DNA of 64,000 nt from an uncultured bacterium (GCA_964499705.1 CAZCME010000020.1:1-64000); one strand, 5' to 3'. Shown: positions 1 to 30,104, counted from the first letter of the stretch. The notes: generated by a model not told the origin, from the letters alone. Numbers and translations are program-made.

Positions 1-11
1 CTGGGGAGCGA

Positions 12-1043
12 TCACGGCGACGATTCACAGTCTGCGCGCCGCAACGGCGCGGGTTGGATCTGGAACCGCGCGAAGAGGAGAAGGCCGACCGCGATCATGA
101 GGATCTGAACCAAGCGCTGCGCCAGGGCGTACGACAGGCCGATGCCGGTTCCGAATCCGAGAGCGTGGAAGATGAACATGCGCCCGCCTTCATGGAGCCC
201 GAGGCGGCCGGGGATGATGACGGAGGGAAGATCCAGGAGGATCGACGCGGCCTGGATCATGATGCAGGCCGTGACGCCCGCGGAAATTCCGAGAGCGTGC
301 AGAATGAGAAGTGTCTGGAAAACGCTGACGATCCGCGCCGCGACATGGAAGCCGATGGAGAGGATGAAGTCGCCGGGCCTCCGGCCGTACAATTCGCTCA
401 TACAGATATCGAGTTTCTCCGCGCCCGTGATGAGAGAGGCCAGCTTGATGCTTCGAAGAAGCGGAATACCGGCCAGCGCGGTCAGGAGCGGAGCCAGTCC
501 CTTCTTCTGAAGTCGGACGAAATAGAAAAGCCCGCTCGTCAGGACCACGAACGAGATCGCCGCGAGCGGTGCCGCGAAATCGGGAAGATCGATCAGCCGC
601 AACATCATGAGGAGTCCTGCGCAAATCATGATCGCCTGCCCGATCATGAAGCTCCCCTGCGCGGCGATCACGGAGGCAAGGCCCGTGCTGAGCGGAACTT
701 CCGGTGCGAGGAGCATCGCCTTCACGGGTTCCCCGCCGAGCGTCAAGGACGGTGTCACCTGGTTGATCGATGTCCCGGCCATCCGGATCGCGAAGAGGCG
801 CATTCCTCGAGGGCGGCAGGCACGCGGCAGCGTGACGAGCCATCCAAAAGTGCAGAGAAGATCGAAGAGAAATTCCGCGAGGACGATGGGAAGGAAAAAT
901 AGTCCGATCCCCGCGAGACCGGCCGCGATGCGGGCGTGATCCGCGGTGCGGATCATTTCCGCGAAGACGAGCGCGCCGACCGCCAGGAGGACGATCTGGA
1001 TCGCGCGCGATCGGTTCCTGCCCGCGCCGGGATTGTCCGTCAC
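12..1043 (-). CDS. HpnL-like / lysylphosphatidylglycerol synthase TM (flippase-like) membrane protein
   Basis: C-terminal 343 aa of the 551-aa ORF is multi-TM with 'INQVTPSLTLGGEPVKA' and 'IPGRLGLHEGG' motifs. GTG start overlaps the hpnN stop (GTGA at 1043-1040). Confidence 0.75.
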   Translation of the reverse strand: MTDNPGAGRNRSRAIQIVLLAVGALVFAEMIRTADHARIAAGLAGIGLFFLPIVLAEFLFDLLCTFGWLVTLPRACRPRGMRLFAIRMAGTSINQVTPSLTLGGEPVKAMLLAPEVPLSTGLASVIAAQGSFMIGQAIMICAGLLMMLRLIDLPDFAAPLAAISFVVLTSGLFYFVRLQKKGLAPLLTALAGIPLLRSIKLASLITGAEKLDICMSELYGRRPGDFILSIGFHVAARIVSVFQTLLILHALGISAGVTACIMIQAASILLDLPSVIIPGRLGLHEGGRMFIFHALGFGTGIGLSYALAQRLVQILMIAVGLLLFARFQIQPAPLRRADCESSP

Positions 1044-3754
1044 GCGCCGCGCACGTTCCAGCGCGCCAGGAAGGTCGGAAGGATGAGGAGCGTGCAGACG
1101 ACATTGATGATGAGGCCCGCCGTCAGCATGCTCCCCATGCTCGCCATGCCCGCGTGCGACGAGAGCATCATGTTGCCCATGCTTCCGGCCGTTGTCAGGG
1201 CGCTGAAGATGATCGCCCGGCTCGTCGTGGACTTCAGCAGTTCCCCCGTCCCGGCGGTGCCGTGCCGCAGGTGGCGATCCATCACGTGAATGCCGTTGTC
1301 GCCCGCGGCGCCGACGAGAAGCGGGAGCACGATGATATTGGCGAAATTGAACGGCACCCGGAAGAGGACGGAGAAGGCGCAGGTGAAGAGTCCGCCCAGG
1401 ATGAGCGGCAGCATGACGAAGAGGACGATCCGAGCGCGGCGGAAGAGGAAGAAGAGCAGGATCATCATTCCGGCCAGGGCGGTCAGGAGCGCCTGTCGGA
1501 AGGCGCGGATCACGGCGCGGCTGGCTTCGACAAAGATGACGGGTGATCCCGTCGCTCCCGGCACGATGCTCCGCACTTCCGAGACGAACTTCAGGAGCGG
1601 ACCGTTCTGCGTCAGGTCTTCCTCCGGAAGAATCTCGACGCGGTATCGGCCGTCGCCCGCGATCCATTGAGCGCGGATCTCCTCGGGGATGCCCGCTTCC
1701 GTGACGATGTCGCCGGTCGAGAGAGCGAGCTGGAGCTTGGCGAGCATCGGTTCGAGAGACGAGAAGAGGGAGAGCGAGAGCGCGCCGAATTCTTCGCTTC
1801 GTTTATCCGGTGGCAGCGCGCGCAGCGCGTCCGTGTATCGCTTCAGGGTTGCGTTCAGGGCGCGGGCATGCGTGTCCGCTGATGCCCGGCGCGTCACTTT
1901 CTCCGCGAAGTCCTCCAGCGACGAATATTCCTCCTCTGGATCGACGCGCCGCGACGGAGTCACCGTCCAGAATTCCGGCTGCAGGAGTTCGCGCAGCTCC
2001 GTGATGATCGCGAGCTTTTCATCCTGTTTCTTCGGCACGAAGCTGTTGATGGATACGACGCCATGCACGGTCTCCAGAGGCTTCAGCCGAACGGCCTCGG
2101 CCTCCGCCGCGTCGGCGTTGCGGGCCAGGAGGACGATCGAGCTGGCGCTCCGGGAATGCGCCGCAAGATCGTGGTAGGTCGCGACGGATTCGGAGTGCGG
2201 ATCGCGGAGATTCATCGGATTGTAATCGAACGTGACTTGAGGAAGAAGAACAAGCGCGATCACGGCGAGGAGGACGGTCGCGGCCGGCAGGAGCCTCAGG
2301 GGTCCGGTGATTGCGCGTGCCGGCGCGGCCGGCTCGGGAGGACCGCCCGGAACAGGAAGAACGGAGGGCGGAGAAAGAGGCATCATCGAAAGAAGCGCAG
2401 GGAGAATTGTGAAGGTCGCCAGGAGGCTGATGAACATGCTCGTGCCGCCGATGAGCCCCAGCTCCGAGACGCCCTTGTAATCGGTCGGAATGAAGGAATA
2501 GAAGCCGACGGCTGTCGTGGTGGCGCAGAGCGCGAGCGGTCCCGCCATTTCGGACGCCGTGCTGCGCAATGACGCGATATGCGTCAAGCCGTCCCTCTTG
2601 ATCTGATCGCCGTACCGCAGACAGAAGTGGACGGTGTAATCGATCCCGAGCCCGATGTAAATCGCGGCGAAGGCGGCGGAGATGAGATTCAGATGCCCGA
2701 CGGCGGCGCCGACGAAACCGATCGTCCAGGCCAGTCCGACGGCCAGCGTCACGATCGAGGCGATCACCATGCTCCGGGAATTGAGCGCCCAGAAGAGAAT
2801 GATCGAGACGAGCAGGAAGGAGAGCCATCCGGATTGCAGGGCGCTTTCCGCCGCGCTCTTGAGTTCCTCGTGTTCGAGCGCGACCTCGCCGGTCAGGCGA
2901 AGGTTTAGCCCGTGGGGAGCATCGATCGCGAGCACGCGCGCCGCTTCGCGGATCTTTTCCATCGCCTCCTCCGCTCTTCCATACCCGTCGCCCTGCGCAT
3001 TAGTCTGGCAGGTTACAAGCGCGCGACCGCGATCCGCTCCTTCCTGGCTCGTCATGGTATCGCGCGATGTGTCATCCATGAGATTTCGCCAGGAGAGTTG
3101 GTACGGCCGATTCTCCAGACGCGCCGAGAAGACTCCGTCGAGGGCGCGAAACAGAGGTTCCAGTTCCGCGGAATGATTGTCCGCTCCCGTGAGGCGCACG
3201 GCATCGCCCGTCGCGCTGCCCTCGATCGCCTCCCCCACGGGCTGGAAGAATCCGGGAAGGTCGGGCCCCGCGATCATTTTCCGGAGCAGCGGCTCCATTT
3301 GAAGAAGCCGGTTCGAGAGATCCGAAAGATCCGCTTCATCCAGAAACAGGAATGCATGGGCTATGAAAAATGTATCCGCCCCGGGCCGCTCGACTTTCTC
3401 GAAGAGCGCCTCCGATCGCAGAACGACCGCCAGCCTGTCCGCGGCATCCTCCGCCATCTCCGGAGTCGGCGCGTCGATGACAGAGACCAGTTTTCCCCTG
3501 TTCCCGGGAAACGCCTGCTTGTAGTCCTCATACACGCGGCGATATTCGAGCTCGCGGGAGAGCATGTCGGAAGTATCCGTGGTGATTCCCAGGCGATGCA
3601 TGGCGAAGGAGACCGACAGGATCGCCAGCAGCAGACCGAGGACAAGGACGGTCCGCGGATGACGTCCGGACAGGACGGCCGTCGAAGTGAGAATCCGGAC
3701 GATGAATCCGTCCGGATCCGAGGAGGGAATCGGACGATCGGAATTTTCCCGCAT
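1040..3754 (-). CDS. hpnN: Hopanoid-associated RND/MMPL transporter
   Basis: 904 aa, two MMPL repeats ('GLGIDYTVH', 'GAAGDNGIH'), 'FDYNPMNLRDPHSESV' motif, hopanoid context. Confidence 0.88.
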   Translation of the reverse strand: MRENSDRPIPSSDPDGFIVRILTSTAVLSGRHPRTVLVLGLLLAILSVSFAMHRLGITTDTSDMLSRELEYRRVYEDYKQAFPGNRGKLVSVIDAPTPEMAEDAADRLAVVLRSEALFEKVERPGADTFFIAHAFLFLDEADLSDLSNRLLQMEPLLRKMIAGPDLPGFFQPVGEAIEGSATGDAVRLTGADNHSAELEPLFRALDGVFSARLENRPYQLSWRNLMDDTSRDTMTSQEGADRGRALVTCQTNAQGDGYGRAEEAMEKIREAARVLAIDAPHGLNLRLTGEVALEHEELKSAAESALQSGWLSFLLVSIILFWALNSRSMVIASIVTLAVGLAWTIGFVGAAVGHLNLISAAFAAIYIGLGIDYTVHFCLRYGDQIKRDGLTHIASLRSTASEMAGPLALCATTTAVGFYSFIPTDYKGVSELGLIGGTSMFISLLATFTILPALLSMMPLSPPSVLPVPGGPPEPAAPARAITGPLRLLPAATVLLAVIALVLLPQVTFDYNPMNLRDPHSESVATYHDLAAHSRSASSIVLLARNADAAEAEAVRLKPLETVHGVVSINSFVPKKQDEKLAIITELRELLQPEFWTVTPSRRVDPEEEYSSLEDFAEKVTRRASADTHARALNATLKRYTDALRALPPDKRSEEFGALSLSLFSSLEPMLAKLQLALSTGDIVTEAGIPEEIRAQWIAGDGRYRVEILPEEDLTQNGPLLKFVSEVRSIVPGATGSPVIFVEASRAVIRAFRQALLTALAGMMILLFFLFRRARIVLFVMLPLILGGLFTCAFSVLFRVPFNFANIIVLPLLVGAAGDNGIHVMDRHLRHGTAGTGELLKSTTSRAIIFSALTTAGSMGNMMLSSHAGMASMGSMLTAGLIINVVCTLLILPTFLARWNVRGA

Positions 3755-3859: not shown

Positions 3860-4801
3860 ATGACGGGAAAATCGGCGACGAGCGGGCGGATATCGTGGCT
3901 GGACTGGATCCGGTTCGGTCCGTTTCTTTCCCAGCTCGTTGTCATTCGCAAGTGCAATCTCTCCTGTTCCTACTGTTTTGAATTCGACAGGACCTCGGAA
4001 CCCGTTCCCTACGCTCTCCTGGAGGAACGTCTTGCCAAGCTGCGTCAGCTCCGTTCCTGGGTCGTCTGCCTGACGGGCGGGGAGCCGACGCTTCATCCTG
4101 AAATCGATCGGCTGGTTGGCGCAATGCGCGAGATGGGATTCCGCCGACGCCAGATGATCACGAACGGGTACCGTCTCACGCGGGAATCGATCGAATCCTG
4201 GAACGAGTCCGGGTTGACGGATCTCCAGTTGAGCATCGATGGCGTGAAGCCCAACCGGACGACCGTCAAGGTGCTCGATCCTCTCAGGCCGCAGCTGGAG
4301 CTCCTGGCGCGGCATGCGCGGTTCAAGGTGGTCCTGTCCGCCGTCATCGGCAGCACGACTCCCGAGGAAGCGGGAGAGGTGATCCGGTACGCGCGCGAGC
4401 GGAATTTCTCGCCGCGTGTACTCCTGATTCACGACGTGGACGGCCGGATCCGGCTGACGCCGGAGGAATTATCCGCATATAGGAAAGTGAAGCGCGATCT
4501 GGGCGGAGCCGGAACCGAGTCGGGAGATTATCGGGAGCATCTTATCAACGAGGGCGCGGCGCCGTTCCATTGCCGCGCCGGTTCGCGCTATCTCTATGTC
4601 GATGAATTCGGCCTCGTGCACTGGTGCAGCCAGACCCGCGAGGCCTTCGCGAAGAATCTGATGTCGTACACGCCGGATGACTTGAGAGCTCAATTCGACA
4701 CCGGCAAGTCCTGCAACCCGGGATGCAGCATCGGCTGCGCGCGCACGGCGTCGGCTTACGATGAGTGGCGCGGTCAACCGGCGCGTTCACCCTCGTCATG
4801 A
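3860..4801 (+). CDS. Radical SAM enzyme with C-terminal Twitch/SPASM-like Cys cluster, function unknown
   Basis: CNLSCSYC (CxxxCxxC), 'LTGGEP', C-terminal 'CRAGSRYLYVDEFGLVHWCSQ...CNPGCSIGC'; SD GAGGA upstream. Confidence 0.85.
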   Translation: MTGKSATSGRISWLDWIRFGPFLSQLVVIRKCNLSCSYCFEFDRTSEPVPYALLEERLAKLRQLRSWVVCLTGGEPTLHPEIDRLVGAMREMGFRRRQMITNGYRLTRESIESWNESGLTDLQLSIDGVKPNRTTVKVLDPLRPQLELLARHARFKVVLSAVIGSTTPEEAGEVIRYARERNFSPRVLLIHDVDGRIRLTPEELSAYRKVKRDLGGAGTESGDYREHLINEGAAPFHCRAGSRYLYVDEFGLVHWCSQTREAFAKNLMSYTPDDLRAQFDTGKSCNPGCSIGCARTASAYDEWRGQPARSPSS

Positions 4802-5787
4802 ACGCCCGGCGGATTCTCGTCACCGGGGCGACGGGATTCATCGGCTCCGCGGTCGCAAGATGCCTGTTGGCACGAGGGCACGATGTAAGGGTCCTTTTGA
4901 GATCGACATCGCCGCGGGAGAATCTGGAAGATCTTCAGGTCGAAATCGCGGTCGGCGATCTGCGCGATCCGGAATCCCTGTCGAGCGCGTTGCGAGGATG
5001 CGACACGGTCTTTCACGTCGCGGCCGATTATCGATTCTGGGCGAAAGATCCGAATGAGATTTACGAGACCAATGTGGACGGTACACGGGCGATCATGCGC
5101 GCCGCCCTGGAGGAGGGAGTGGAACGCATCGTCTACACGTCGAGCGTGGCGACGCTTGGTGCGACCGTGGATGGAAGTCCGGCCGACGAAGACACCCCGT
5201 CCACGCTCGAATCCATGATCGGCGCGTATAAAAGGTCGAAATTCCTCGCGGAAAAGGAAGTGAGCAGGATGGCCGCGGATCGGGCACTTCCGGCGATCAT
5301 CGTGAATCCCGCCGCGCCCGTGGGTCCCCGCGACATCAAGCCCACACCCACCGGGAAAATGATCCGCGACGCCGCCGCCGGAAGAATGCCCGCGTACATC
5401 GAGACCGGTCTCAATATCGTCCACGTCGACGATGTCGCGGAGGGACACTGTCTCGCCTTCGAACGCGGCGTGATCGGTCGCCGCTACATCCTGGGCGGCG
5501 AGAACAGGGAATTGCGGTCGATCCTTACGGACGTCGCCGAACTTGCCGCCGTCACTCCTCCGCTCCTGCGCCTTCCCATGGCTCCTTTGATCCCGATCGC
5601 CGCGATTATTGAAGGAGCAGCCCGCGTGACCGGCAACGCCCCCTGGTTTACCCGTGATGAACTCTGCATGGCGAGGAAGCGGATGTATTTCTCGTCGGAC
5701 CGCGCCCGGCAGGAACTGGGCTACGACCCGCGCCCGGCCCGAGCCGCGTTGGCGGACGCCGTGGAGTGGTTCAAGAACCGAGTATGA
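4798..5787 (+). CDS. hpnA: Hopanoid-associated NAD-dependent sugar epimerase/dehydratase
   Basis: GATGFIG, 'FHVAADYR', YKRSK, 'PVGPRDIKPTPTG'; ATGA overlap with the radical SAM stop. Confidence 0.9.
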   Translation: MNARRILVTGATGFIGSAVARCLLARGHDVRVLLRSTSPRENLEDLQVEIAVGDLRDPESLSSALRGCDTVFHVAADYRFWAKDPNEIYETNVDGTRAIMRAALEEGVERIVYTSSVATLGATVDGSPADEDTPSTLESMIGAYKRSKFLAEKEVSRMAADRALPAIIVNPAAPVGPRDIKPTPTGKMIRDAAAGRMPAYIETGLNIVHVDDVAEGHCLAFERGVIGRRYILGGENRELRSILTDVAELAAVTPPLLRLPMAPLIPIAAIIEGAARVTGNAPWFTRDELCMARKRMYFSSDRARQELGYDPRPARAALADAVEWFKNRV

Positions 5788-6563: not shown

Positions 6564-7238
6564 TTAAGGTAATGTAGTCCTATTATCGGCCCAACGAACC
6601 AGCAAGTTTTTCAGGGCGCGCGCCGCCAGAAAATAATCCCGGGTGAGTTGAAGCAAGGGGAAGAAGGTCCCCGGTTTCCGCAGCATCGCCACGGCCACAT
6701 CGCGCGCGGACGGTTCGCCGCGGCCGATCAAATCCTCCAGCGGCGAGAAATCTCTCATGGCGTCGTCCAGGACGCATCTCAGCGCCAGGAAGGGAATCCG
6801 GGATGCTGCCGCCACATGCGCCACGGATGCGGACTCCATGTCGAGCGCGTCCGCGCTGAATCTCCTCCGCAAATCCTTCTTCTCGCGAGGATCCGCGACC
6901 AGGTGTTCGACTGTCACGGCCCGCGCGGTTCTCGCTCCGAGCGCCCGCGCGCGCATCATCAAGGCTTCATCAGGAACGAAGGAGACCGAATCCTCCGCCT
7001 GGGCGACGACCGGTGAAAGCGCGACGACTGTTCCGGTCGCAAGGTCCGGACTGAGCCCGCCGCAGAATCCCACCAGGAGGCACCAGTCGGGTCGCGCTTC
7101 ACCGATGGCCCGACATGCGCCGTCTGCCGCCGCCACGCCCATCCCTATCCGCCGCACGCGAATGCCGTCCTGTTTCCGAAAGGCCCGCCGCGCGATCGCG
7201 TGCTCCGCCCTGAGCGGAGCCAGCACGAGTCCGCTCAT
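6564..7238 (-). CDS. hpnG: Hopanoid-associated nucleosidase/phosphorylase (PNP/MTA-SAH family)
   Basis: 'GMG', 'GFCGGL', 'ALDMESA', 'LRCVLD' motifs; immediately downstream of hpnH. Confidence 0.8.
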   Translation of the reverse strand: MSGLVLAPLRAEHAIARRAFRKQDGIRVRRIGMGVAAADGACRAIGEARPDWCLLVGFCGGLSPDLATGTVVALSPVVAQAEDSVSFVPDEALMMRARALGARTARAVTVEHLVADPREKKDLRRRFSADALDMESASVAHVAAASRIPFLALRCVLDDAMRDFSPLEDLIGRGEPSARDVAVAMLRKPGTFFPLLQLTRDYFLAARALKNLLVRWADNRTTLP

Positions 7239-7248
7239 CGTGTTCGTC

Positions 7249-8265
7249 TCAGCCGGCCGTGCGAAGGAGCGATCCCAGGACGCGCATGCCCGAACGGAGG
7301 CTTCCCAGGGCGTCTTCCACGGCCGTGCCCTCGTAGCCGCAATGCGCCATGCACTGGGCGCAGCGAGGATCCCGCCCGGTTCCGTAGCGGTCCCATTCCG
7401 TCTCTTCCATCAGCTCCCGGAATGTCGCCGCGTACCCGTCCGACATGAGATAGCAGGGCTTCTGCCATCCGAAGACGTTCCGGGTCGGGTTCGACCACGG
7501 CGTGCATTGGTAGTCCCGCTCGCCGACCAGGAAATCGAGATACAGCGGCGAATGGTTGAAGTTCCAGTCGTGGCGCCAGGACTCGTGGAGAATTTCCCGG
7601 AAGAGCGCGCGGGTCTCTTCGCGCCGCAGGAAATTTTCCTGGTCCGGCGCTTTTTCGTACGCGTAACCCGGAGAAATGGTCATGCCGTCGACGCCGAGAT
7701 CCGCCAGCATGTCGAACATCGCCCGCAGTTCTTCCGGATCTTCCTCACGGAAAACCGTGGTGTTTGTCGAGACGCGGAATCCGCGGCGCTTGGCTTCCTT
7801 GATCGCCTCGATCGCGATCGCGAAGACTCCTTCGCGGCAGACTTTCCGGTCGTGAGTCGCCTCCAGGCCGTCGAGGTGAATGCTGAACGTGAAATACTCC
7901 GAGGGTGTGAAGAGATCGAGGCGCGATTTCAGCGGCACGGCGTTGGTGCAGAGATAGACGTATCTCCGCTGCGCCACGAGGCCCGCGGCGATCTTGTCGA
8001 TCTCCGGGTGCATGAGCGGTTCTCCGCCCGCGATGGAGACGACCGGCGCGCCGCACTCTTCCGCGGCCGCGAGGCAGTCCGCCACCGGAATTCTCTTCCG
8101 GAGAATATCCTCCGGGAACTGGATCTTGCCGCATCCCGCGCATTCCAGGTTGCACGCGAAGAGCGGTTCCAGCATCATGACCAGCGGAAAACGCTCGATG
8201 CGCCGCAGCTTCTTTCCCAGCACATAGGACGCGACGGCCGCCGCCTGCTTCAGGGGAACGCCCAT
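7249..8265 (-). CDS. hpnH: Adenosyl-hopene transferase (radical SAM)
   Basis: 'FPLVMMLEPLFACNLECAGCGKI', 'SPGYAYEKAPDQENFL', 'CTPWSNPTRNVFGWQKPCYL', 'CAQCMAHCGYE'. Confidence 0.95.
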   Translation of the reverse strand: MGVPLKQAAAVASYVLGKKLRRIERFPLVMMLEPLFACNLECAGCGKIQFPEDILRKRIPVADCLAAAEECGAPVVSIAGGEPLMHPEIDKIAAGLVAQRRYVYLCTNAVPLKSRLDLFTPSEYFTFSIHLDGLEATHDRKVCREGVFAIAIEAIKEAKRRGFRVSTNTTVFREEDPEELRAMFDMLADLGVDGMTISPGYAYEKAPDQENFLRREETRALFREILHESWRHDWNFNHSPLYLDFLVGERDYQCTPWSNPTRNVFGWQKPCYLMSDGYAATFRELMEETEWDRYGTGRDPRCAQCMAHCGYEGTAVEDALGSLRSGMRVLGSLLRTAG

Positions 8266-9654
8266 TCAGGAATTCGACTTCGGAGCGGGATCTACGCCCG
8301 GACGGGCTTCTTCGTAGTAATCGAGCCCCGAATGATCGATGACTTCCTCGCCCATGATGATCCGCAGCGTGTTCTGCATCTTCTGATCCTGCTGGAAGAG
8401 ATCGTTGATGGGAGGAAGATCGGGGCGGTGCATCGGCGACTTGAAGTAGAACGACAGCCATTCCTGGATGCCGGACATGCCCGCCCTCCGCGCGAGATCG
8501 AGGAAGAGGACGAGGTCCAGGACGACCGGTGCGGCCAGGATCGAGTCGCGGCAGAGGAAATTGAGCTTCAACTGCATGGGCGCGCCGAGCCAGCCGACGA
8601 TGTCGATATTGTCCCAGCCCTCCTTCGCGTCGCCGCGCGGAGGATAATACTCGATCCGCACCTTGTGGTAGTAATGGCCGTACAGCTCCGGATACAGGTC
8701 CGCCTGGAGGATGCTGTCGAGGACGGAGCTCTTGGAGACTTCCTTCGACCGGAACGATCCGGGATCGTCGAGGACTTCGCCGTCGCGGTTGCCGAGGATG
8801 TTGGAGGAGAACCAGCCGGCGAGACCGAGCATGCGGGCCTTCAGGCCAGGAGCGACGATCGTTTTCATGAGCGTCTGTCCGGTCTTGAAGTCCTTGCCCG
8901 CAATGGGAGCTCCGGTCTGGCGTGCCAGTTCCACGAGCGCCGGGATCTCGCACGAGAGGTTCGGCGCTCCGTTGGCGAAGGGGATGCCGAGCTTGATGGC
9001 GGCGTAGGCATAGATCGTCGAAGGCGGAATTTCCGGCAGGTTCTCCCGCAGCGCCTTCTCAAAACCTTCGATCGTCTCGTAAGACTTGGGACTGGTGCCT
9101 TCCTGGTACACTTCCGTCGATCCGCACCAGCACATGACCAGCCGCTCCGCGCCGCTGGCCGCCCGGAAGTTCTCGATGTCCCGCATCAGTTGTTCGGCCG
9201 CGTCCATCTTGTTCGAGGTCTTCTTGACGTTGGGGCCGGAGATCTTCCGGACGAATGCCGGGTCGAATACGGCGGGCCACGGGCGGATTGCCGCCAGCTC
9301 GTCCCGGATCGGATCGAGCTGCTCGCGCGTCAGGACTCCGCACTCCAGAGCCTCGCGATAGCAATCCGAGTCGAAAATATCCCATCCGCCGAAGACGAGG
9401 TCGTCGAGCCCGGCCAGGGGAACGAATTCGCGGATGAAGGGATACCGGGCTTCGTTTCTCTTGCCAAGCCGGATCCGTGCCATCTGCGTCACGGATCCGA
9501 AGGGCCGGCCCAGCCCGCGTCGCGCGAGGAAAACTCCGGCGATGAACGTGGAGCTGACGGCGCCGAGGCCGGGAAGGAGGATGCCGAGCTTGCCGCGTGC
9601 GGGAGCGATCGATTTCTTGAGACCGCGATATTCGAACGTTCCTGTGTGCGCCAT
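8266..9654 (-). CDS. ino1: Myo-inositol-1-phosphate synthase
   Basis: 'GLGAV', 'GKDFKTGQTLMKT', 'NILGNRDG', 'GDAKEGWD', 'CRDSILAAP', 'SFYFKSP'. Confidence 0.95.
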   Translation of the reverse strand: MAHTGTFEYRGLKKSIAPARGKLGILLPGLGAVSSTFIAGVFLARRGLGRPFGSVTQMARIRLGKRNEARYPFIREFVPLAGLDDLVFGGWDIFDSDCYREALECGVLTREQLDPIRDELAAIRPWPAVFDPAFVRKISGPNVKKTSNKMDAAEQLMRDIENFRAASGAERLVMCWCGSTEVYQEGTSPKSYETIEGFEKALRENLPEIPPSTIYAYAAIKLGIPFANGAPNLSCEIPALVELARQTGAPIAGKDFKTGQTLMKTIVAPGLKARMLGLAGWFSSNILGNRDGEVLDDPGSFRSKEVSKSSVLDSILQADLYPELYGHYYHKVRIEYYPPRGDAKEGWDNIDIVGWLGAPMQLKLNFLCRDSILAAPVVLDLVLFLDLARRAGMSGIQEWLSFYFKSPMHRPDLPPINDLFQQDQKMQNTLRIIMGEEVIDHSGLDYYEEARPGVDPAPKSNS

Positions 9655-9672
9655 GGATTTTCGTCTTCTAGT

Positions 9673-10722
9673 TCAAGCGCATTTGAAGCGGGGCTCCGTG
9701 AGCGCGCGCCGGGAGATGAAGCGAAGGTAATCGTTGTTGCGGATGCATTCCGGCACGTGCGTGAGAATCGCGAGGACTTCGACCCGTGAGATCTTGACGG
9801 GGCTCGGCGTCATCAGCCGGTCGCGGTTCCTGTTCAGGGCATTCACGGTCCGGACGGCCAGCAGGTAGGGAACGATGCAGAAATCCCGGGCGGCGGTGGC
9901 TTCCACCGGCAACGATTCGATATATTGCCGGGCCGATTCCAGTTTCGCGACGGCATGCTCGATCAATTCGTCCATGGCCTTCGTCGCGGCCTGCCTGTCT
10001 TCGAACATGCGCGCATGGGACGTCCCGTGCTTTTCCAGCACGGAGGAGGGAATGTAGATGTTGTCCTCGTTCTCGAAGTCGATGAAGACGTCTTTCAGGA
10101 TATTGACCGCCTGGAGCGATTCTCCGAAGTCCACGGCGCGCGATTCGAGGAGCAGCCGCGTGTCGTCGTCGAAGCGGTGCCATAGCGAGAAAATTCCGGT
10201 CAGCATCATGCCCACGGTGCCGGCGACGTAATAACAGTAGCGGCTGAATTCGGGAAGCGTGGCGATCCGGATCCGGTTCTCGTACCGAAGGATGAACTCC
10301 CGCATGCCGGCGACCATCTCCCGGAGATGCCTCTCCACGCTTTCGTGGATTTCCGGCGGAAACGTTTCGAAGACGCGAAAGACGCGCGGCGTGTTCATGA
10401 CGAGTTCCCAGCACGCGTCATGACCGCGCCATGCCGAGGCCCGTTCCACGAATTCCTCGCAGGCGTTCGCCCCGCGAGTCGAACGCGAGAGAAGGCGGTG
10501 GTAGGATTCCAGCAATTCCTGCTTCTGCTGGAAGGGTATGTTCCGGTCGTCCTCGATCGTGTCCGGGATGCGGCAGAGGAGATAGGGCACGCCGACATGG
10601 TCATTCCATGGTTCCGGCATCCGCTCGATGCCGATGGCGAAGGTGCGGGAGACATCCCCGACGATTCCGCGGCACCAGGCGCCGTCCGAAGAAGCCTTCC
10701 TGGTCATGGAGATGGTGATCAC
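9673..10722 (-). CDS. Squalene synthase (farnesyl-diphosphate farnesyltransferase, single-enzyme type)
   Basis: 'VSRTFA', 'YLLCRIPDTIEDD', 'YCYYVAGTVG', 'LQAVNILKD'; GTG 10722 follows GGGGAG (alternative ATG at 10707). Confidence 0.85.
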   Translation of the reverse strand: MITISMTRKASSDGAWCRGIVGDVSRTFAIGIERMPEPWNDHVGVPYLLCRIPDTIEDDRNIPFQQKQELLESYHRLLSRSTRGANACEEFVERASAWRGHDACWELVMNTPRVFRVFETFPPEIHESVERHLREMVAGMREFILRYENRIRIATLPEFSRYCYYVAGTVGMMLTGIFSLWHRFDDDTRLLLESRAVDFGESLQAVNILKDVFIDFENEDNIYIPSSVLEKHGTSHARMFEDRQAATKAMDELIEHAVAKLESARQYIESLPVEATAARDFCIVPYLLAVRTVNALNRNRDRLMTPSPVKISRVEVLAILTHVPECIRNNDYLRFISRRALTEPRFKCA

Positions 10723-10931
10723 GCTCCGAACTCCCCGTTTCTCCGCCCGCCTCGAAACGGTTCGCTCATCGCGCTGTTTTCTTTTCGCGACATATTTTTG
10801 GCCCCCGGCAGAATATCGAAGCGCCGGAGGCATTACAATGGGATTGCGGATCACGATTTCCCGGTCCGCGCCTTGACCGGCGCCGTCCGCGCGCTTATCG
10901 TAGAGAGCCTCTATTGGGCAAGGAGCATGCC

Positions 10932-11579
10932 GTGTCTTCTCGAATTCCGTTTCGGGCGATCGTCCTCGCGCTGGTCGTCGCAATACCTGCCTGGGCCGGT
11001 GAACCGCGCGACCTGATCGCGTCGAACGCCCGCCGCGCGGTCCAGCGCGCCCGGGAATCCGGCGGATCGGGCGCCGCCAGCGTGGACAAGATGCGCACGG
11101 TCTTCGTCGAGCAGATGGAGCCGCTCTTCGATTACCGCGAATTGACCATGCGGACACTCGGCGTGCATGCCCGGAAATATTCGGAGGCGGAAGTGAAGGC
11201 CCTGACCGGGGTGTTCCGGGATTTTCTTCGCCAGCTCTTCCGGTCGACGCTCCTGCCGAAGAACACGTTCCAGAATCTCGAGCGCGTCGATGTCACCGAC
11301 GAGCTGATCCGCGGCCGGTATGCGCGCGTCGCGACGGTGGCGATGGTCCGCCGCGAGAATAAGCCGGAGACGCTCCCTGTCGTCTATCTCCTCGTCAATA
11401 CGCGCGATAAGAAATGGAGCATCTACGACATGGAGATCGACGGCTATAGCATCGTCAGCAACTACCGCGCGCAGTTCGACGCGGTTCTGAAGAACAAGCC
11501 GCTGGCGGAGCTGATGAAGATCCTGGGAGAAAAAACGCGGAATCTCGTGAAGGAGAATACCGCCGGCAGTTCGCATTGA
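10932..11579 (+). CDS. MlaC/HpnM family periplasmic lipid-binding protein
   Basis: 'WSIYDMEIDGYSIVSNYRAQF' motif; AAGGAG SD before GTG 10932. Confidence 0.85.
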   Translation: MSSRIPFRAIVLALVVAIPAWAGEPRDLIASNARRAVQRARESGGSGAASVDKMRTVFVEQMEPLFDYRELTMRTLGVHARKYSEAEVKALTGVFRDFLRQLFRSTLLPKNTFQNLERVDVTDELIRGRYARVATVAMVRRENKPETLPVVYLLVNTRDKKWSIYDMEIDGYSIVSNYRAQFDAVLKNKPLAELMKILGEKTRNLVKENTAGSSH

Positions 11580-11587
11580 CTTGCCGC

Positions 11588-12418
11588 ATGCGTTGCCTTG
11601 TCCTGCCGATTCTCGCGGCGGTCATCGCTTTCGCCCCTGCCGCCCGCGCCCAGGCATACGAAGCGTCGCTCGATACAACCGCCGGGGAATATCCGTCCAC
11701 CGCGCCGGATCCGGATACCGGGATCGACGGATTTATCCCGTCCGACTCCGAAGTGGATTATTCCGAAGATCCCTTCGCCGATGTGCGCCCGGCCCGCCAT
11801 GCTCCGCTTCCTGATCCGCTCTCCGGGGTCAATCGCGTCATCTTCAAGGTCAACGGCGTCGCGCTCTTCGTTCTCCTGAAGCCTGTCGCGACGGCGTATC
11901 GCTTTGTCATCCCGAAGCCCGTTCGATCCGGCGTCAAGAATGTATTCCGGAATCTCTCCGAGCCGCTTCGCTTCGCCAGCGCTCTTCTCCAGGGACGCCC
12001 GCGCGACGCTGGAAAAAGCGTCGCGCGGCTTCTCGTGAACTCGACTGTCGGCGTTGGAGGACTCTTCAACGTGGCGCCGAAGGACCTCGCCGATGCGGAT
12101 CGCGATTTCGACCAGACGCTCGCCTCGTGGGGAATTCCGCCGGGCATCTACCTGATGCTTCCGCTCGGAGGTCCTTCCAGCGTCCGCGACGCGATCGCAT
12201 CCTTCGGCGAATCGTTCCTCGATCCGGTCAACTATATCCGGGGCGAGGACGCGGATGCGATCATCGCGGGGGCGCATGGAGTCAAGACCGTGAACGATTT
12301 CAGCTTTCGAATCGAGGAGGTCGATTCTCTCATGAAGTCCACGGTTGATCCCTATGCCGCGGTGAAGGCATACTATGAGGAGAGGTTGCCGAATGACGCG
12401 GTGGATCGAACAAGATAG
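11588..12418 (+). CDS. mlaA: MlaA/VacJ family protein
   Basis: 'DPLSGVNRVIFKVN', 'NSTVGVGGLF', 'DFDQTLASWG', 'GPSSVRD', 'DPYAAVKAYY'. Confidence 0.9.
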   Translation: MRCLVLPILAAVIAFAPAARAQAYEASLDTTAGEYPSTAPDPDTGIDGFIPSDSEVDYSEDPFADVRPARHAPLPDPLSGVNRVIFKVNGVALFVLLKPVATAYRFVIPKPVRSGVKNVFRNLSEPLRFASALLQGRPRDAGKSVARLLVNSTVGVGGLFNVAPKDLADADRDFDQTLASWGIPPGIYLMLPLGGPSSVRDAIASFGESFLDPVNYIRGEDADAIIAGAHGVKTVNDFSFRIEEVDSLMKSTVDPYAAVKAYYEERLPNDAVDRTR

Positions 12419-13353: not shown

Positions 13354-15840
13354 TTACGGATTCATGGTGGCCAGCGCGGACATGATTCGATCCTCGATTT
13401 CACGTTTCCGTCTCGATGCTTCCGGAATGGAAAGTCCCGATGCCACGGACGGAGGATGGACGAGGTTCGTCAGGAAGGGCGGGAAGTATTTCTGATGGTG
13501 CCGTGCGCCGACGATGATCCGGGCGACGAGCGCACACGCGACTTCCATGGGCTGATTCTCCATGACGCGCGCGCCGAACGTCACATCGACGCTTTCGGAC
13601 TCGCCCAGGCGGAAGGAGAGCTCCGTGGACATGTCCACGCCTTCGGCCGCGGCCGTCGTCGGCTCGATGAGACTATCCTCTCCCGGTCTTCGTGCCGGCA
13701 GGATCTTCCAGCACACCACCGGTCGCCCGCGCGAAAGTCCGGACAGGTAATGGGTGCTCGCGGCGAGGCAGAACGGCGCCTCTTTCGCGGTCGTGGCCCA
13801 TGCGTCGCAACCGCCCTTCTCGTCCACGAGGAGAAATCCGATTTCGTGCGCGAAGGGGATTGTGAAGATCGAGATGGCTCCCGTCCGGATGAGAGCGAGA
13901 ATTTCCGAGATGAGCCGCCCTCCGGCGTCGTCCGGCAGCCGCGCGAATCGAAAAAGTCCGCCTCGCCGGCCCGCTTCGATCAGCAATTCCTCCGTGGACG
14001 ATGTCTCGAACGCGGAACGGTCCCGGATGACGGTGTAACGCAGGTAATCTTTCAGGATGAGAAAGTGTTCGTCGCGTCCCGCGAACGCTTCGGCCAGGAT
14101 GCCCTGGGCTTCCGCCTTGTCCGGAGCCGTCGCGACGTCGAAGAAGAACTCGCTGCCCGACTTCGGTTCCGGCATGCCGAGTATGCAGGCGATCGCGGAT
14201 GAGAATGCCATCTCGCCCGTGAAGACTCGATACTCCACGACTCCCCATGTCGTTCGCGTCATCACGGTCACGAGGCGGGTCGAGTAATCTTTTCCCTGCG
14301 CCTGCTCCATGATGATGAGGTGCCGATCCGGCGCCGAATCGCCGTCGAGCGCGTCGGACGATGCGTGGTGATCGAGAAGCCGACCGAGCGCCTCCCGGAT
14401 TTCCGGAATCTTTCTGGGAAAAAGATCGATCGGCCAGCCGCGGATCTCCGTTTTGCCCGCGACGAGGAGGCTGTTCTTGAGCGCGAACGCCAGCAGAGGC
14501 GGCACGGAAGGAGCTCGCTTGATCGCCGCAATGGAGGAGAAGTCAGGCTTTCCGGAAAATCGGTCCAGGGAGAGCATCCACTCCTGTGAGGTGGGGTCCC
14601 GGATGATCGACAACGTCGGTTCGCCGCGCGACGGCACGTCCGAGAATGTCAGGGACTCGATGACGGCGCCTGTTCCCGCCCGGAGCAAAATCTTCCGCGT
14701 CAGCGCCCGGATCTTCGCGGGATTCAGGTTCAGTCCGCCGTAGCCGCTGATCTCCTTCAGGGATGTCTGCAGGTATTTCGCGATCCGGTTCGAAAACTGG
14801 ATGCGCGTGTCGATCGGCCACTCGAAGTAAGCATCAAGCCTGTCGATGTCGACCGGCTTGCCGATCTCCTGGAATTTCGCCGAGAGCAGCCTCTCCCTGT
14901 TTTTCCGGAGCCGGTCCGGCGATGTCTCCTCCGCCACCATCTTCAGATACAGCACCGACTTCAGAAACGTATGATCGTCCTCCGCCTGGATCGACTTGAA
15001 GTAGTCCCATAGATATTCCAGCAGCAGCATGTAAGAGTCCGGAGAAGCAACCCGCTCGATGCGCGCCGCGTAGACTTCGGCGGGCAGCTTGTCGTTCGGG
15101 CGAGCCGCCAGCCGCCGGAGCAGCGCGACCTTCAGCGCGGACTTGAAGGGCTTCTCCAGGGCCTTGTCGAGCTGGGCGAGACAGGCCGCAAGGTACTGCT
15201 CCGTCGTCAACCGCGGGATCGCGCCGAAATCAATGGAGAGCGCGGGGGAGCCTCCCCACGAGAGAGGTTCGAGCCCGGCGACGTGGACGAATGTCCGGAG
15301 AAACTCATCCTTCAACAACGCGCCGAATTCCCCCGCGCTCTCCTCGTCGTACGCGAAGGTCGCCTTCTGGATCTCGCCGAGGTCATGGATGTAGAAATGA
15401 ATCTCCAGCTCCGCCGCCTTCATCGCCCACTCTTCGATCGCATGCATTCTCGTGAAGAGCTTCTTCCGATTTTCGGCCGAGACCGCGTCCGCCGGATGCA
15501 CCAGCCAGAAATCGATGTCGGAGGCCGATGTGAAGCAGGAGCTTCCCACCGATCCCATCGCAAAGAGCCCGAGGAAGGCGCCGCGGCGGGGTTGCGGAGG
15601 ATTCTTCCTGAGTTCCGGGAAGAAGGCCGCCGCCGCCGGCATGACTTCCGGAAGGAAATTCGGCCGCATGAATCCATGCAGCGGCGTTTCGTCCGTCGTG
15701 CGCCCGGTCAGCGAGGGGATATCGTAATGAAGCAGGGCCGGCAGCGCGCAGAAGGCATTCCATTTCGCCGTGGGAAGGCACTCCTGGAGGAGCGTGATCT
15801 TTTTCCGGTTGTGCGTGGCGAAGAGCTCGCGGATGGACAT
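13354..15840 (-). CDS. cyaA: Class I adenylate cyclase-like protein
   Basis: 828 aa; 'GLFAMGSVGSSCFTSASDIDFWLV' matches the class I AC nucleotidyltransferase motif; also 'LLKDEFLRT', 'KPFKSALK'. Confidence 0.8.
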   Translation of the reverse strand: MSIRELFATHNRKKITLLQECLPTAKWNAFCALPALLHYDIPSLTGRTTDETPLHGFMRPNFLPEVMPAAAAFFPELRKNPPQPRRGAFLGLFAMGSVGSSCFTSASDIDFWLVHPADAVSAENRKKLFTRMHAIEEWAMKAAELEIHFYIHDLGEIQKATFAYDEESAGEFGALLKDEFLRTFVHVAGLEPLSWGGSPALSIDFGAIPRLTTEQYLAACLAQLDKALEKPFKSALKVALLRRLAARPNDKLPAEVYAARIERVASPDSYMLLLEYLWDYFKSIQAEDDHTFLKSVLYLKMVAEETSPDRLRKNRERLLSAKFQEIGKPVDIDRLDAYFEWPIDTRIQFSNRIAKYLQTSLKEISGYGGLNLNPAKIRALTRKILLRAGTGAVIESLTFSDVPSRGEPTLSIIRDPTSQEWMLSLDRFSGKPDFSSIAAIKRAPSVPPLLAFALKNSLLVAGKTEIRGWPIDLFPRKIPEIREALGRLLDHHASSDALDGDSAPDRHLIIMEQAQGKDYSTRLVTVMTRTTWGVVEYRVFTGEMAFSSAIACILGMPEPKSGSEFFFDVATAPDKAEAQGILAEAFAGRDEHFLILKDYLRYTVIRDRSAFETSSTEELLIEAGRRGGLFRFARLPDDAGGRLISEILALIRTGAISIFTIPFAHEIGFLLVDEKGGCDAWATTAKEAPFCLAASTHYLSGLSRGRPVVCWKILPARRPGEDSLIEPTTAAAEGVDMSTELSFRLGESESVDVTFGARVMENQPMEVACALVARIIVGARHHQKYFPPFLTNLVHPPSVASGLSIPEASRRKREIEDRIMSALATMNP

Positions 15841-15932: not shown

Positions 15933-17630
15933 ATGAACGGCGGCGAAAACTATCACTTCTGCTACGTGGGTTCCGATGCCCGCCTCGGGCTCCTGCTTAA
16001 ATACCGGCTCGAAAAAGCCGGAATCGTCGCGGTCACGCCGGACACTCCCTTGAACAGCTTCAAGCTTGTTCACCAGCTCATGCCGCGGGTCGTGCTCGTG
16101 GACGAACGGATCGGCATGAATCGCAACTCGCTCGATCTCATCATCGCTCTCCGTCGCACTTTTCCGCGCGATCGGATGGCGGTCCTCTGGCATCCCCAGG
16201 TCGCCACGCGCGACAACGTCGTCTCCGCGATCCGCACCGGCGTGGACTCCGTCATCGTCAGGCCTCTCACGATGGCGATGCTCATCGACCGCATCAACAG
16301 CTATCTTCTCCCCCGGCAACGATCCTCCCTTGGCGAGGACATCGACATCCCCGAGAGTCCGTCCGGCGAGGATGTGCTCGCCCGTCTCGGCCGCGTCCAG
16401 TCGCTCTCCGCCGTTCCGTTTGTCGTGGAGCGGATCATGAAGCTGACGGGGAACGACGAGAGCGGCGCGCGCGATCTCGAGCAGGTGATCGAGAGCGATC
16501 CGCAGGTGACCGCCATCGTCCTGATGCGCGCGAATTCGGCCTTCTACGCGTCGTCCCGGAAGATCGGGCGCGTCATCGACGCCGTCGCCCGGATCGGTTT
16601 TCGCGAGGTGCGCGCCATCGTTCTGGGGCTCTCCGTCATCAACATGTTTTCGCAGGAGCAGAAGAACGTCGGTTTCGACCGCGCCGATTTCTGGAAGAAG
16701 TCGCTCGTCACCGCCGTCATCGCCCGCATGCTCGCGGAAGAAGCGCCGGACGTCGATTCCGACGATGCCTTCATCGCGGGTCTCCTGATCGATCTCGGCA
16801 GGATCGTCCTGGACGAGCATTTCACGGCGGAATTCGCCCGCGCCGTCGCGGTCGCCGACAAGTACCGCGTCTCGCTCGTGGAAGCGGAACGGAAAATTCT
16901 GGGCATCGATCATCAGGGCATCGGCCGTAACATTCTCGAACGCTGGCGATTCCCGGAACAACTGGTCGAGGTCGTCGGCTGCCACGAGGAGCCGGAAAAG
17001 ATGCGCTTCATCCGCAACGAGAAGACGCGCGCGCTGGCCGAGGTCGTCTGGGCCGCGCAGTGGGTGAGCAGCATGCTGCCGGTCGGCTCGTCCGGCGAAG
17101 CCGTCGTTCATTATCCGGATCCGCAATTCACGCAGAACCTGAAATTCTGGAAGGCGTTGAAACCCGGATTCGCCGACCAGGCCTATTCGGAAGTGAGCGA
17201 TCTCCTCAGCTTCATCGGTTCGTCCTGCTCGATTCCGCTCCCGGAAGCGCGCCAGGGCGAGGACAAGGGCGAAGTGATTCTCTACGAGGAAACCGAGCTG
17301 CCCGTCAGTCCGCTCCAGCACATCTTCGAAGGCGGTCTCTTCTCCGTCACGAAGACGTCCGATCTCGTTCAGCTCGGCAACGCCGATTCCCATACGATCG
17401 TCGCCGTCGAATTCAAGTCCGTCGACGCTTTTATGGCGGCGAAGCCTTACCTCCCCGACGAAGGCCACCCCCTCCTCGTCGTCCTTCCCCGGGGCGACGT
17501 CCCGAAAGATGAAACGATCCGCAAGCGCGTCGGCCTGCCCGTCAGGAACACGGTCTACCTGGAAAAGCCGATCCACCGCAGCGAATTCTGGGACGAGATC
17601 AGGAAGATCATTCCGACGCTCAACGAGTAG
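15933..17630 (+). CDS. HDOD-domain signalling protein with N-terminal receiver-like domain
   Basis: 'IESDPQVTAIVLMRANSAFY', 'AFIAGLLIDLGRIVL', 'GIDHQGIG...WRFPE'. Confidence 0.85.
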   Translation: MNGGENYHFCYVGSDARLGLLLKYRLEKAGIVAVTPDTPLNSFKLVHQLMPRVVLVDERIGMNRNSLDLIIALRRTFPRDRMAVLWHPQVATRDNVVSAIRTGVDSVIVRPLTMAMLIDRINSYLLPRQRSSLGEDIDIPESPSGEDVLARLGRVQSLSAVPFVVERIMKLTGNDESGARDLEQVIESDPQVTAIVLMRANSAFYASSRKIGRVIDAVARIGFREVRAIVLGLSVINMFSQEQKNVGFDRADFWKKSLVTAVIARMLAEEAPDVDSDDAFIAGLLIDLGRIVLDEHFTAEFARAVAVADKYRVSLVEAERKILGIDHQGIGRNILERWRFPEQLVEVVGCHEEPEKMRFIRNEKTRALAEVVWAAQWVSSMLPVGSSGEAVVHYPDPQFTQNLKFWKALKPGFADQAYSEVSDLLSFIGSSCSIPLPEARQGEDKGEVILYEETELPVSPLQHIFEGGLFSVTKTSDLVQLGNADSHTIVAVEFKSVDAFMAAKPYLPDEGHPLLVVLPRGDVPKDETIRKRVGLPVRNTVYLEKPIHRSEFWDEIRKIIPTLNE

Positions 17631-28471: not shown

Positions 28472-28488
28472 ATGGGAGATTTGCTGAT

Positions 28489-28517
28489 TTGCATTCAACG
28501 CACAATGGCCCTACTCT
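28489..28517 (+). promoter_or_regulatory. Sigma70-type promoter, leaderless methyltransferase mRNA
   Basis: TTGCAT-N17-TACTCT-N6-ATG. Confidence 0.6.
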
Positions 28518-28523
28518 TAACAC

Positions 28524-29804: not shown

Positions 29805-29921
29805 ATGTTTGAACAGTTTTGCACACAATAAAATATTTTTGAAAGACCCTAAAGTTATTCCACGCTTCGTCGATAACACTTTTAGCCAGGGAATGGCTGA
29901 AAGACACAAGGAGGTAGAGAC

Positions 29922-30104
29922 ATGAAAGTATACGAGTTGGATCACTGGGTTCTTTTCGACACCTTGAAGCCGGAGCAGATCAACCGCTTGAAGACTGTCA
30001 TCGACAACAAGATTACGCCGGCATCCCCCGCCGCCGATCAGCCCGCCAAGAATTCTTTTCTTTCGATGCTGAACACGGAAACGGACAAGCTGGACGGGAA
30101 ATAA
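29922..30104 (+). CDS. Small hypothetical protein (60 aa)
   Basis: Strong SD AAGGAGG upstream of ATG; followed by a hairpin. Confidence 0.6.
   Translation: MKVYELDHWVLFDTLKPEQINRLKTVIDNKITPASPAADQPAKNSFLSMLNTETDKLDGK

Follow-up and report, generated by a model that had tools for sequence, protein, structure and literature searches.

Hopanoid head groups serve as biomarkers and shape outer-membrane properties, and to our knowledge hpnI, hpnK and hpnJ are the only genetically defined cyclitol head-group route for hopanoids. In that route, as it is presented in PMC13459092, N-acetylglucosamine is converted to an ether-linked cyclitol in three stages, namely glycosyl transfer, deacetylation and a ring contraction by radical chemistry. 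Members of the hopanoid gene neighborhood that a 2025 microsynteny preprint names include hpnL, hpnM and two new candidates for transport; the function of HpnL is called unclear there (PMC12324291). Among inositol lipids, Heaver et al. (2022) presented an unconfirmed, Kennedy-like cluster in Prevotella and Bacteroides vulgatus with genes for a myo-inositol-1-phosphate synthase (MIPS), a nucleoside triphosphate (NTP) transferase, a cytidine diphosphate (CDP)-alcohol transferase and a HAD protein (PMC9246714). Here we examine a locus at which these themes meet: in a stretch of 64,000 nucleotides from an uncultured bacterium (GCA_964499705.1, CAZCME010000020.1:1-64000; hereafter the window), a MIPS gene, ino1, lies between a squalene synthase-like gene (sqs) and hpnH in a hopanoid operon, and it likely points to an undescribed, widespread modified-inositol head-group pathway tied to hopanoid production.

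This MIPS gene belongs to a conserved set of genes for a HAD protein, an NTP-transferase, an ATP-grasp protein, a class-III aminotransferase, a GFO/IDH/MocA oxidoreductase and a CDP-alcohol phosphotransferase, ending in MIPS; we call this set the cassette, a unit defined in the present analysis and no curated family. Shared with the Prevotella and B. vulgatus cluster are MIPS, the NTP transferase, the CDP-alcohol transferase, HAD and a neighbor resembling lysyl-phosphatidylglycerol (LPG) synthase, as well as the logic of joining CDP-inositol to a lipid alcohol; unlike that cluster, as the main text of its description gives it, only the cassette here has the GFO/IDH/MocA, class-III aminotransferase and ATP-grasp genes and is embedded in hopanoid clusters (PMC9246714). 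The cassette also resembles IPCT/DIPPS of Archaeoglobus fulgidus and AF2299 (PDB 4mnd, 2xme, 4o6m), in that CTP and inositol phosphate would give a CDP-alcohol, whose phospho-alcohol part is then transferred by a CDP-OH enzyme that lies in the membrane and has its N-terminal domain in the cytoplasm. It differs in that its fusion gene stands amid genes for amination, ligation and lipid transport, whereas the DIPPS product is a soluble solute. Like HpnI/HpnK/HpnJ, whose end product carries an amino-cyclitol on its C35 side chain (PMC13459092), the cassette would be a head-group pathway placed in hopanoid clusters; unlike in that route, the predicted link is a phosphodiester formed from a CDP-activated, MIPS-derived cyclitol. 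The microsynteny set of HpnL, HpnM, HpnN and an MlaA-like protein recurs as the neighbors of the cassette both here and in Alphaproteobacteria (PMC12324291). The words "inositol" and "CDP" have 0 occurrences in the main text of that preprint, whose supplementary tables list further neighbor families that could include these genes. Within open-licence PMC papers and bioRxiv we found no published description of the cassette, although one elsewhere is possible.

A MIPS gene in the operon sqs-ino1-hpnH-hpnG

An earlier reading of this DNA from the sequence alone (hereafter the preliminary description) had placed sqs, ino1, hpnH and hpnG in this order on one strand, which our open reading frame (ORF) calls and the Pfam and NCBIfam profiles bear out (window 6564-10722, minus strand; Table 1). 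It had also stated that the stop of ino1 abuts the start of hpnH and that 18 bp separate ino1 from sqs; read directly, the TGA of ino1 occupies 8268-8266 and the ATG of hpnH follows immediately at 8265 (a gap of 0), with 18 nt between the sqs stop and the ino1 ATG and 10 nt between hpnH and hpnG. Such tight packing implies that the four genes form one transcript. A Logan contig from a run of another study covers window positions 8775-9971 (76 of 1197 letters differ) and bridges sqs and ino1, and this junction is therefore not an artefact of a single assembly. For the ino1/hpnH junction, with short-sided joints disregarded as probably spurious, there was no bridging piece among the other-study contigs compared, one of which ends at 8267; a single piece extends 237 letters beyond the window start.

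The ino1 product scores well above the cut-offs of both MIPS domains (PF07994, 312.9 bits against 25; PF01658, 107.1 bits against 27), and its best solved relative is 7nwr (E-value 4e-151, residues 12-441, with long identical blocks), the MIPS BT_1526 of an inositol-lipid producer (PMC9246714); MIPS structures from eukaryotes and archaea match likewise. To the actinobacterial, mycothiol-type INO1 family (TIGR03450) it scores 32.7 bits, against a cut-off of 638. HpnH matches its own family with a score more than twice the cut-off of 225 (Table 1), and both PF04055 and PF11946 are present. By comparison, the names of the two outer genes depend on Pfam domains and context, their NCBIfam scores being below cut-off. 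The sqs-like gene falls under all equivalog cut-offs (its best NCBIfam match is to TIGR01559 squalene synthase, 117 against 286.75; HpnD 64; HpnC 53), and the phosphorylase, whose best match is the HpnG equivalog TIGR03468 (88.2 bits against 187.1), can be supported only as "HpnG-like", by its PNP_UDP_1 domain and its position beside hpnH, as in G004, a genome of a sister family in the same order.

The remainder of the cassette and an inferred supercluster

The same genome has the six other genes of the cassette, at the end of its contig C3 (Table 1); their sharing a locus with the window depends on an inferred overlap of 31 nt. Window positions 1-31 and the final 31 nt of C3 differ at 2 positions, no third copy of the final 22 nt of C3 exists in the genome, and joining the two contigs closes the open ORF of a second CDP-alcohol phosphotransferase paralog (CDPOH2) at 406 residues. 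By this overlap, the end of C3 would join the start of the window. Given that join, a supercluster of ~20 kb would unite the cassette with the hopanoid genes in the order (with < for a minus-strand and > for a plus-strand gene) fusion< GFO< aminotransferase< ATP-grasp< NTP-transferase< HAD< CDPOH2> hpnL< hpnN< rSAM> hpnA> hpnG< hpnH< ino1< sqs< mlaC-like> mlaA-like>, where rSAM stands for a radical SAM gene.

The CDP-alcohol phosphotransferase family has the signature consensus D-G-x2-A-R...G-x3-D-x3-D. The genome-wide search for such enzymes that the preliminary description had called for found, besides PgsA and PssA, the two genes at the C3 end, four in all. One of these encodes the cassette's 657-residue fusion protein, in which a CDP-OH domain (223-333) comes first and an NTP-transferase domain (419-648) comes last. 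The fusion belongs to the CDP-alcohol phosphotransferase family by its score (PF01066, 41.2 bits against a cut-off of 22) and, judged by eye in the 4mnd alignment, its signature is intact. Its two halves match best the two halves of the A. fulgidus IPCT/DIPPS protein (4mnd, E-value 4e-37), in which the order of transferase and cytidylyltransferase is the reverse; against the bifunctional IPCT/DIPPS family NF041135 it scores 207.8 bits, where the cut-off is 580. The other, CDPOH2, is divergently oriented to the HAD gene and is truncated by the end of C3; it scores 27.6 bits to PF01066, and in the alignment it reads His at the first of the last two signature Asp positions. A tblastn search at 1e-8 gave no match to CDPOH2 in any of three sets of loci (66, 80 and 160). 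In two Acidobacteriota genomes an extra pair of HAD and CDP-alcohol phosphotransferase genes lies between the hopanoid genes and the cassette (L331:7896-10578 and L332:8669-11325), in parallel to CDPOH2.

The cassette protein that lacks a Pfam match has the predicted fold of an ATP-grasp ligase (pLDDT 91), its top matches being RimK, Ddl, LysX/ArgX and PsnB (E-values ~1e-14). On the basis of this model we assign it with high confidence to the ATP-grasp proteins, nearest to the carboxylate-amine ligases. An identity as an inositol kinase of the ITPK type was considered and rejected, as the top fold matches listed are ligases, with no kinase among the matches listed. The GFO/IDH/MocA oxidoreductase has a weak, sub-threshold affinity to inositol 2-dehydrogenase and to sugar 3-dehydrogenases.

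Distribution of the cassette and its MIPS clade

We found homologs of the cassette transferase at 66 loci, which by their record titles belong to many phyla. By tblastn, these loci have GFO in 57 cases, the aminotransferase in 52, the (unnamed) ATP-grasp protein in 48, the NTP transferase in 38 and HAD in 37, and MIPS lies directly downstream of the transferase in 23; all of these counts are lower bounds, because contig ends cut many loci. Cassette lineages by record title include Acidobacteriota/Thermoanaerobaculia, Alphaproteobacteria, Methylomirabilota, Rokubacteria, Elusimicrobiota, Binatia, Nitrospinae and Deltaproteobacteria, and the carriers in the fetched loci amount to at least 140 species-level genomes. 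There was a cultured carrier at 0 of the 146 loci fetched with transferase queries; all are metagenome-assembled genomes (MAGs).

In a tree of 182 MIPS sequences, a clade of 36 tips (support 1.0) takes in all 32 cassette-linked MIPS, that of the window and that of G004; its other two tips come from a short contig on which a CDP-OH gene is the only neighbor and from a contig without upstream flank. Judged by this placement, ino1 of the window is a member of a widespread cassette and not a stray gene. The Alphaproteobacteria have the cassette with a different MIPS of 392 residues, beside HAD at the opposite cassette end (e.g., L334:16076-17251, minus strand; loci L333-L412). It is 28% identical to the window's MIPS over ~200 residues, and is found in 49 of 80 loci, or 36 of the 54 with full flanks; a MIPS domain is present in 49 of 50 genomes with this alphaproteobacterial cassette type. 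The 392-residue MIPS looks like an independent recruitment into the same cassette. Because two MIPS types appear to have been recruited at opposite cassette ends, inositol phosphate would be the required precursor, and it looks like a constant requirement of the cassette.

We also observed, in an unrelated genome (G007:C16:121-2936, L168), a MIPS that is 59-77% identical to that of the window and is split into two frames, with a TAG inside the match; it is divergent from an adjoining CDP-alcohol phosphotransferase homolog.

Linkage of the cassette to hopanoid genes

The cassette adjoins hopanoid genes in three lineages: the order of the window's genome, Thermoanaerobaculia/Acidobacteriota and Alphaproteobacteria. 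In G004, HAD, ATP-grasp, aminotransferase, GFO and CDP-OH genes come directly after hpnN-hpnL on a single contig. In Thermoanaerobaculia/Acidobacteriota, shc-hpnH-hpnA-sqs lies 4-12 kb from HAD...CDP-OH-MIPS in 8 of 8 genomes and is fully co-directional with it in 6 of 8; the interval between the two groups holds dxs, ispH and an hpnL-like gene in L325. Among the alphaproteobacterial loci with full flanks, HpnN (49/54) and MlaA (47/54) stand just upstream of the transferase, and HpnH (16/54) and squalene-hopene cyclase (SHC; 14/54) are encoded within 10 kb; of these HpnN, 3 of 3 tested were above the HpnN equivalog cut-off.

A similar association is seen at the level of whole genomes. We compared 72 genomes with a cassette-transferase homolog (64 from the transferase-homolog loci, and eight with the cassette beside MIPS from the metagenome MIPS loci); SHC is present in 66 (47/50 plus 19/22) and HpnH above cut-off in 62, or in 65 and 61 of 71, respectively, if the unpublished-flagged G061 is left out. 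By comparison, SHC is present in 12 of 28 genomes that have MIPS with no cassette beside it. The six genomes of the 72 without an SHC match, all of them MAGs, include two with HpnN beside the cassette, one 1.3-Mb MAG with HpnH, and one with an IPCT-CDP-OH pair only. The cassette is thus nearly confined to genomes with shc and hpnH.

The preliminary description had asked for shc beyond the window, and the gene is indeed there, at C3:28867-30840, away from the hopanoid cluster between small YtxH/DUF948 genes and gyrA/gyrB, at a distance of ~355 kb along C3 from the supercluster. The described cyclitol route scores below its cut-offs throughout this 96%-complete genome, the best matches to hpnI, hpnK and hpnJ (TIGR03472, TIGR03473, TIGR03471) being 40.4, 195.1 and 253.1 bits against 310, 232.6 and 577.6.

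How unusual is the direct adjacency of ino1 and hpnH?

Among the 80 nearest MIPS loci of species-representative genomes (6-kb flanks) none has hpnH, sqs or hpnG beside MIPS, nor does any of the 80 nearest metagenome MIPS loci (10-kb flanks), where no MIPS closer than 71% identity was found; conversely, the 8-kb flanks of the 80 nearest HpnH loci contain no MIPS. The lineage of the window is sparsely sampled, with three genomes of the same family (G001-G003) and one of the same order (G004), all other relatives being kin at the level of the domain. In G001-G003 (completeness 86-96%) there was no HpnH or MIPS match at an E-value of 1e-30 or less. The cluster of G004 reads sqs-shc-hpnH-hpnG, followed by hpnA on the opposite strand and then hpnN, so that ino1 of the window fills the slot that shc has in the sister family. 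The G004 MIPS is 74% identical to that of the window and is encoded on a separate contig from its hopanoid cluster.

A proposed pathway

From the family assignments we propose a tentative series of steps, with substrates and an acceptor, as the simplest chemistry in which each gene has a use. MIPS would convert glucose-6-phosphate to inositol phosphate, the activity shown for its solved homolog, and the GFO/IDH/MocA dehydrogenase and class-III aminotransferase may together turn one ring hydroxyl into an amine, which the ATP-grasp ligase, to go by its fold, may acylate or join to a carboxylate. A nucleotidyltransferase would make a CDP-alcohol from the cyclitol phosphate, a step for which this genome has both the cassette's own enzyme and the IPCT-like domain fused to the transferase; the DIPPS/AF2299-like membrane CDP-alcohol phosphotransferase would then hand the phospho-cyclitol to a lipid alcohol, and the HAD phosphatase would strip a leftover phosphate. 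As the acceptor we favor the polyol side chain of a C35 hopanoid made by the neighboring HpnH and HpnG, and the product may be transported outward by the HpnL-like (flippase-like), HpnN and MlaA/MlaC-like proteins. In the window's genome, ino1 would have been relocated from the cassette end into the sqs-hpnH-hpnG operon, at the shc slot of the sister family; as it now lies within that operon, we propose that precursor supply and side-chain synthesis are co-transcribed.

The product is most likely an inositol-derived, probably aminated, phospho-head group, since the dehydrogenase, aminotransferase and ATP-grasp genes suggest an aminated and perhaps N-acylated cyclitol phosphate rather than plain inositol. 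The reading we favor, to which we give a probability of roughly 0.4, is that ino1 is the precursor-supplying gene of a head-group pathway inside the hopanoid supercluster, with the hopanoid itself as the acceptor. Somewhat more speculatively, many uncultured soil and groundwater lineages may make a composite hopanoid, namely a C35 bacteriohopanepolyol that carries, through a phosphodiester, a MIPS-derived amino-cyclitol (perhaps N-acylated), built by Kennedy-type CDP activation and exported by HpnL/HpnN/Mla-like proteins.

Alternative explanations

Several observations weigh against a hopanoid acceptor. The direct ino1-hpnH adjacency is unique to the window's genome; the preliminary description had proposed a survey of this synteny and had itself counted uniqueness to one genome against its idea, and that is literally what the survey found, with the adjacency at 0 of 240 loci elsewhere. 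In G004, ino1 stands apart on its separate contig, flanked by a glyoxalase-II-like gene and an Mrp/NUBPL-type ATPase gene. The curated-family scores of the cassette's transferases are all under cut-off, and the aminotransferase could instead be of the HpnO type, with the hopanoid side chain and not the cyclitol as its substrate. The genome tallies are descriptive and overstate the support, because related genomes are not independent, and three MAGs that have the cassette or a variant of it (of Elusimicrobiota, Chlorobiaceae and, at 1.6 Mb and outside the 72, Chitinophagales) gave no match to squalene-hopene cyclase, maybe through incompleteness. The adjacency is also what one would expect of a neutral rearrangement in which a housekeeping MIPS landed between sqs and hpnH as shc left, with no tie to hopanoids, and the sister family, with shc in that slot and ino1 elsewhere, is in keeping with such an event. 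We consider this very unlikely, as ino1 falls within the cassette clade, the remainder of the cassette is ~10 kb distant within one supercluster, provided that the two contigs join, the linkage of cassette and hopanoid genes recurs in three lineages, and the stop codon abutting the hpnH start implies co-expression. It is likewise improbable that the cassette serves stress protection by making a soluble di-myo-inositol-phosphate-type solute or an aminated relative of one, with shared stress regulation as the sole link to hopanoids: among solved structures and NCBIfam families, the transferase and cytidylyltransferase do match best the solute-making IPCT/DIPPS pair, and the HAD phosphatase that a solute pathway needs is present, but the scores are far under the IPCT/DIPPS cut-off, the neighbors are lipid flippase-like, RND and Mla-type lipid-transport genes, and the association with hopanoid genes would be left without explanation.

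A much closer competitor is an aminated or otherwise modified inositol phospholipid on diacylglycerol or another non-hopanoid anchor, made by a Kennedy-like route as part of one outer-membrane program with the hopanoids, such that co-location reflects shared regulation and shared HpnL/HpnN/Mla-type trafficking. This was the second reading of the preliminary description, and we regard it as a real possibility, if short of even odds. Diacylglycerol is the usual lipid acceptor of the CDP-alcohol phosphotransferase family. Cassette variants occur in the three MAGs without an SHC match, and the closest solved relative of the window's MIPS, BT_1526, is from an inositol-lipid producer. The core gene content, including the LPG-synthase-like neighbor, is like that of the alternative inositol-lipid cluster of Bacteroidetes, which was proposed to make lipids anchored on diacylglycerol or ceramide; in the main text of that paper the words "hopanoid" and "aminotransferase" have 0 occurrences each (PMC9246714), and the silence on hopanoids, too, speaks against a hopanoid acceptor. 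On the other hand, diacylglycerol is universal, yet SHC (66/72) and HpnH (62/72) accompany the transferase homolog across many phyla; cassette genes are interleaved with hopanoid biosynthesis genes, which goes beyond mere proximity; and ino1 translationally abuts hpnH here. The acceptor would most probably be a hopanoid or diacylglycerol. The preliminary description had suggested that the cluster decorates C35 hopanoids with inositol or co-regulates hopanoids with inositol lipids; its broader idea is partly supported, in that an inositol cassette and hopanoid genes are physically linked in three lineages, while the direct ino1-hpnH adjacency on which it was built does not recur, and an inositol-linked hopanoid is only slightly more probable than an inositol lipid made alongside hopanoids.

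If a hopanoid is the acceptor, as we prefer, the composite lipid would parallel, in bacteria, the sterols and inositol-phosphoryl lipids that are paired in eukaryotes, and could serve as a new class of biomarker. Besides hpnI/hpnK/hpnJ there would be a second route, based on inositol and forming a phosphodiester, and with it a new class of lipid; roles would be suggested for the orphan hopanoid-associated hpnL and for the unnamed ATP-grasp family, and the old analogy of hopanoids to sterols with inositol-lipid partners would become testable. If the anchor is diacylglycerol, the product, an aminated inositol phospholipid, would still have a genetic tie to the making of hopanoids.

Other genes of the window

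The operon is flanked by further hopanoid and lipid-transport genes (Table 1), and the remainder of the window is housekeeping (lipopolysaccharide core genes, dnaE, ATP synthase, secA, clpB and others).

Table 1. Operon, neighboring and cassette genes; positions are those of the window unless a contig is given, and scores are in bits
Gene or product	Position	Strand	Matches and remarks
HAD, NTP_transf_3 (MobA-like), ATP-grasp (no Pfam match), Aminotran_3, GFO_IDH_MocA, CDP-OH fusion	G000:C3:378157-384802		Co-directional
CDPOH2, second CDP-alcohol phosphotransferase paralog, 3' end	1-100	+	Starts at C3 384808; closes only with the inferred join
HpnL-like membrane protein (LPG_synthase_TM / flippase-like)	12-1040	-	PF03706 77; TIGR03476 HpnL 96.7, below 195.65
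HpnN, hopanoid RND transporter	1040-3754	-	TIGR03480 837, above 751.85
Radical SAM protein, 313 aa	3860-4801	+	PF04055 67; overlaps hpnA start by 37 nt
HpnA, hopanoid-associated sugar epimerase family	4765-5787	+	TIGR03466 483.7, above 367.65
HpnG-like nucleoside phosphorylase (PNP_UDP_1)	6564-7238	-	PF01048 64.9; downstream of hpnH
hpnH, adenosyl-hopene transferase	7249-8265	-	TIGR03470 530; radical SAM + DUF3463
ino1, myo-inositol-1-phosphate synthase (MIPS), 462 aa, cassette-linked clade	8266-9654	-	PF07994, PF01658
sqs-like (SQS_PSY family)	9673-10722	-	PF00494 160.7; first gene of the operon
HpnM/MlaC-like lipid-binding protein	10914-11579	+	Divergent from sqs; TIGR03481 HpnM 44.4 (sub-cut-off); MlaC NF011697 34
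MlaA (VacJ)-like lipoprotein	11576-12418	+	PF04333 197

The 313-residue radical SAM protein encoded between hpnN and hpnA has no B12 domain and no counterpart at the equivalent site of G004. Its best NCBIfam match is the tetraether synthase Tes (71 bits, far under the cut-off), a homolog with 37% identity lies 7 kb from hpnH in L092, and there are weaker matches in four alphaproteobacterial cassette loci; it could be a hopanoid-modifying enzyme of a new kind.

A class-I (enterobacterial-type) adenylate cyclase gene (window 13354-15840, minus strand) lies back to back with a gene for an HDOD-domain protein (15933-17630, plus strand), just past the hopanoid cluster and a DnaQ-like exonuclease gene. 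The region 28000-30000 has a GC content of 0.58, against ~0.62 elsewhere, around the gene for a 426-residue N6/N4 DNA methylase (28524-29804), which follows dnaE. In G004 we came upon a flagellin of 531 residues with a Peptidase_M10 (matrixin) domain between Flagellin_N and Flagellin_C (L166:7715-9310, G004:C123), which we take to be of the flagellinolysin kind.

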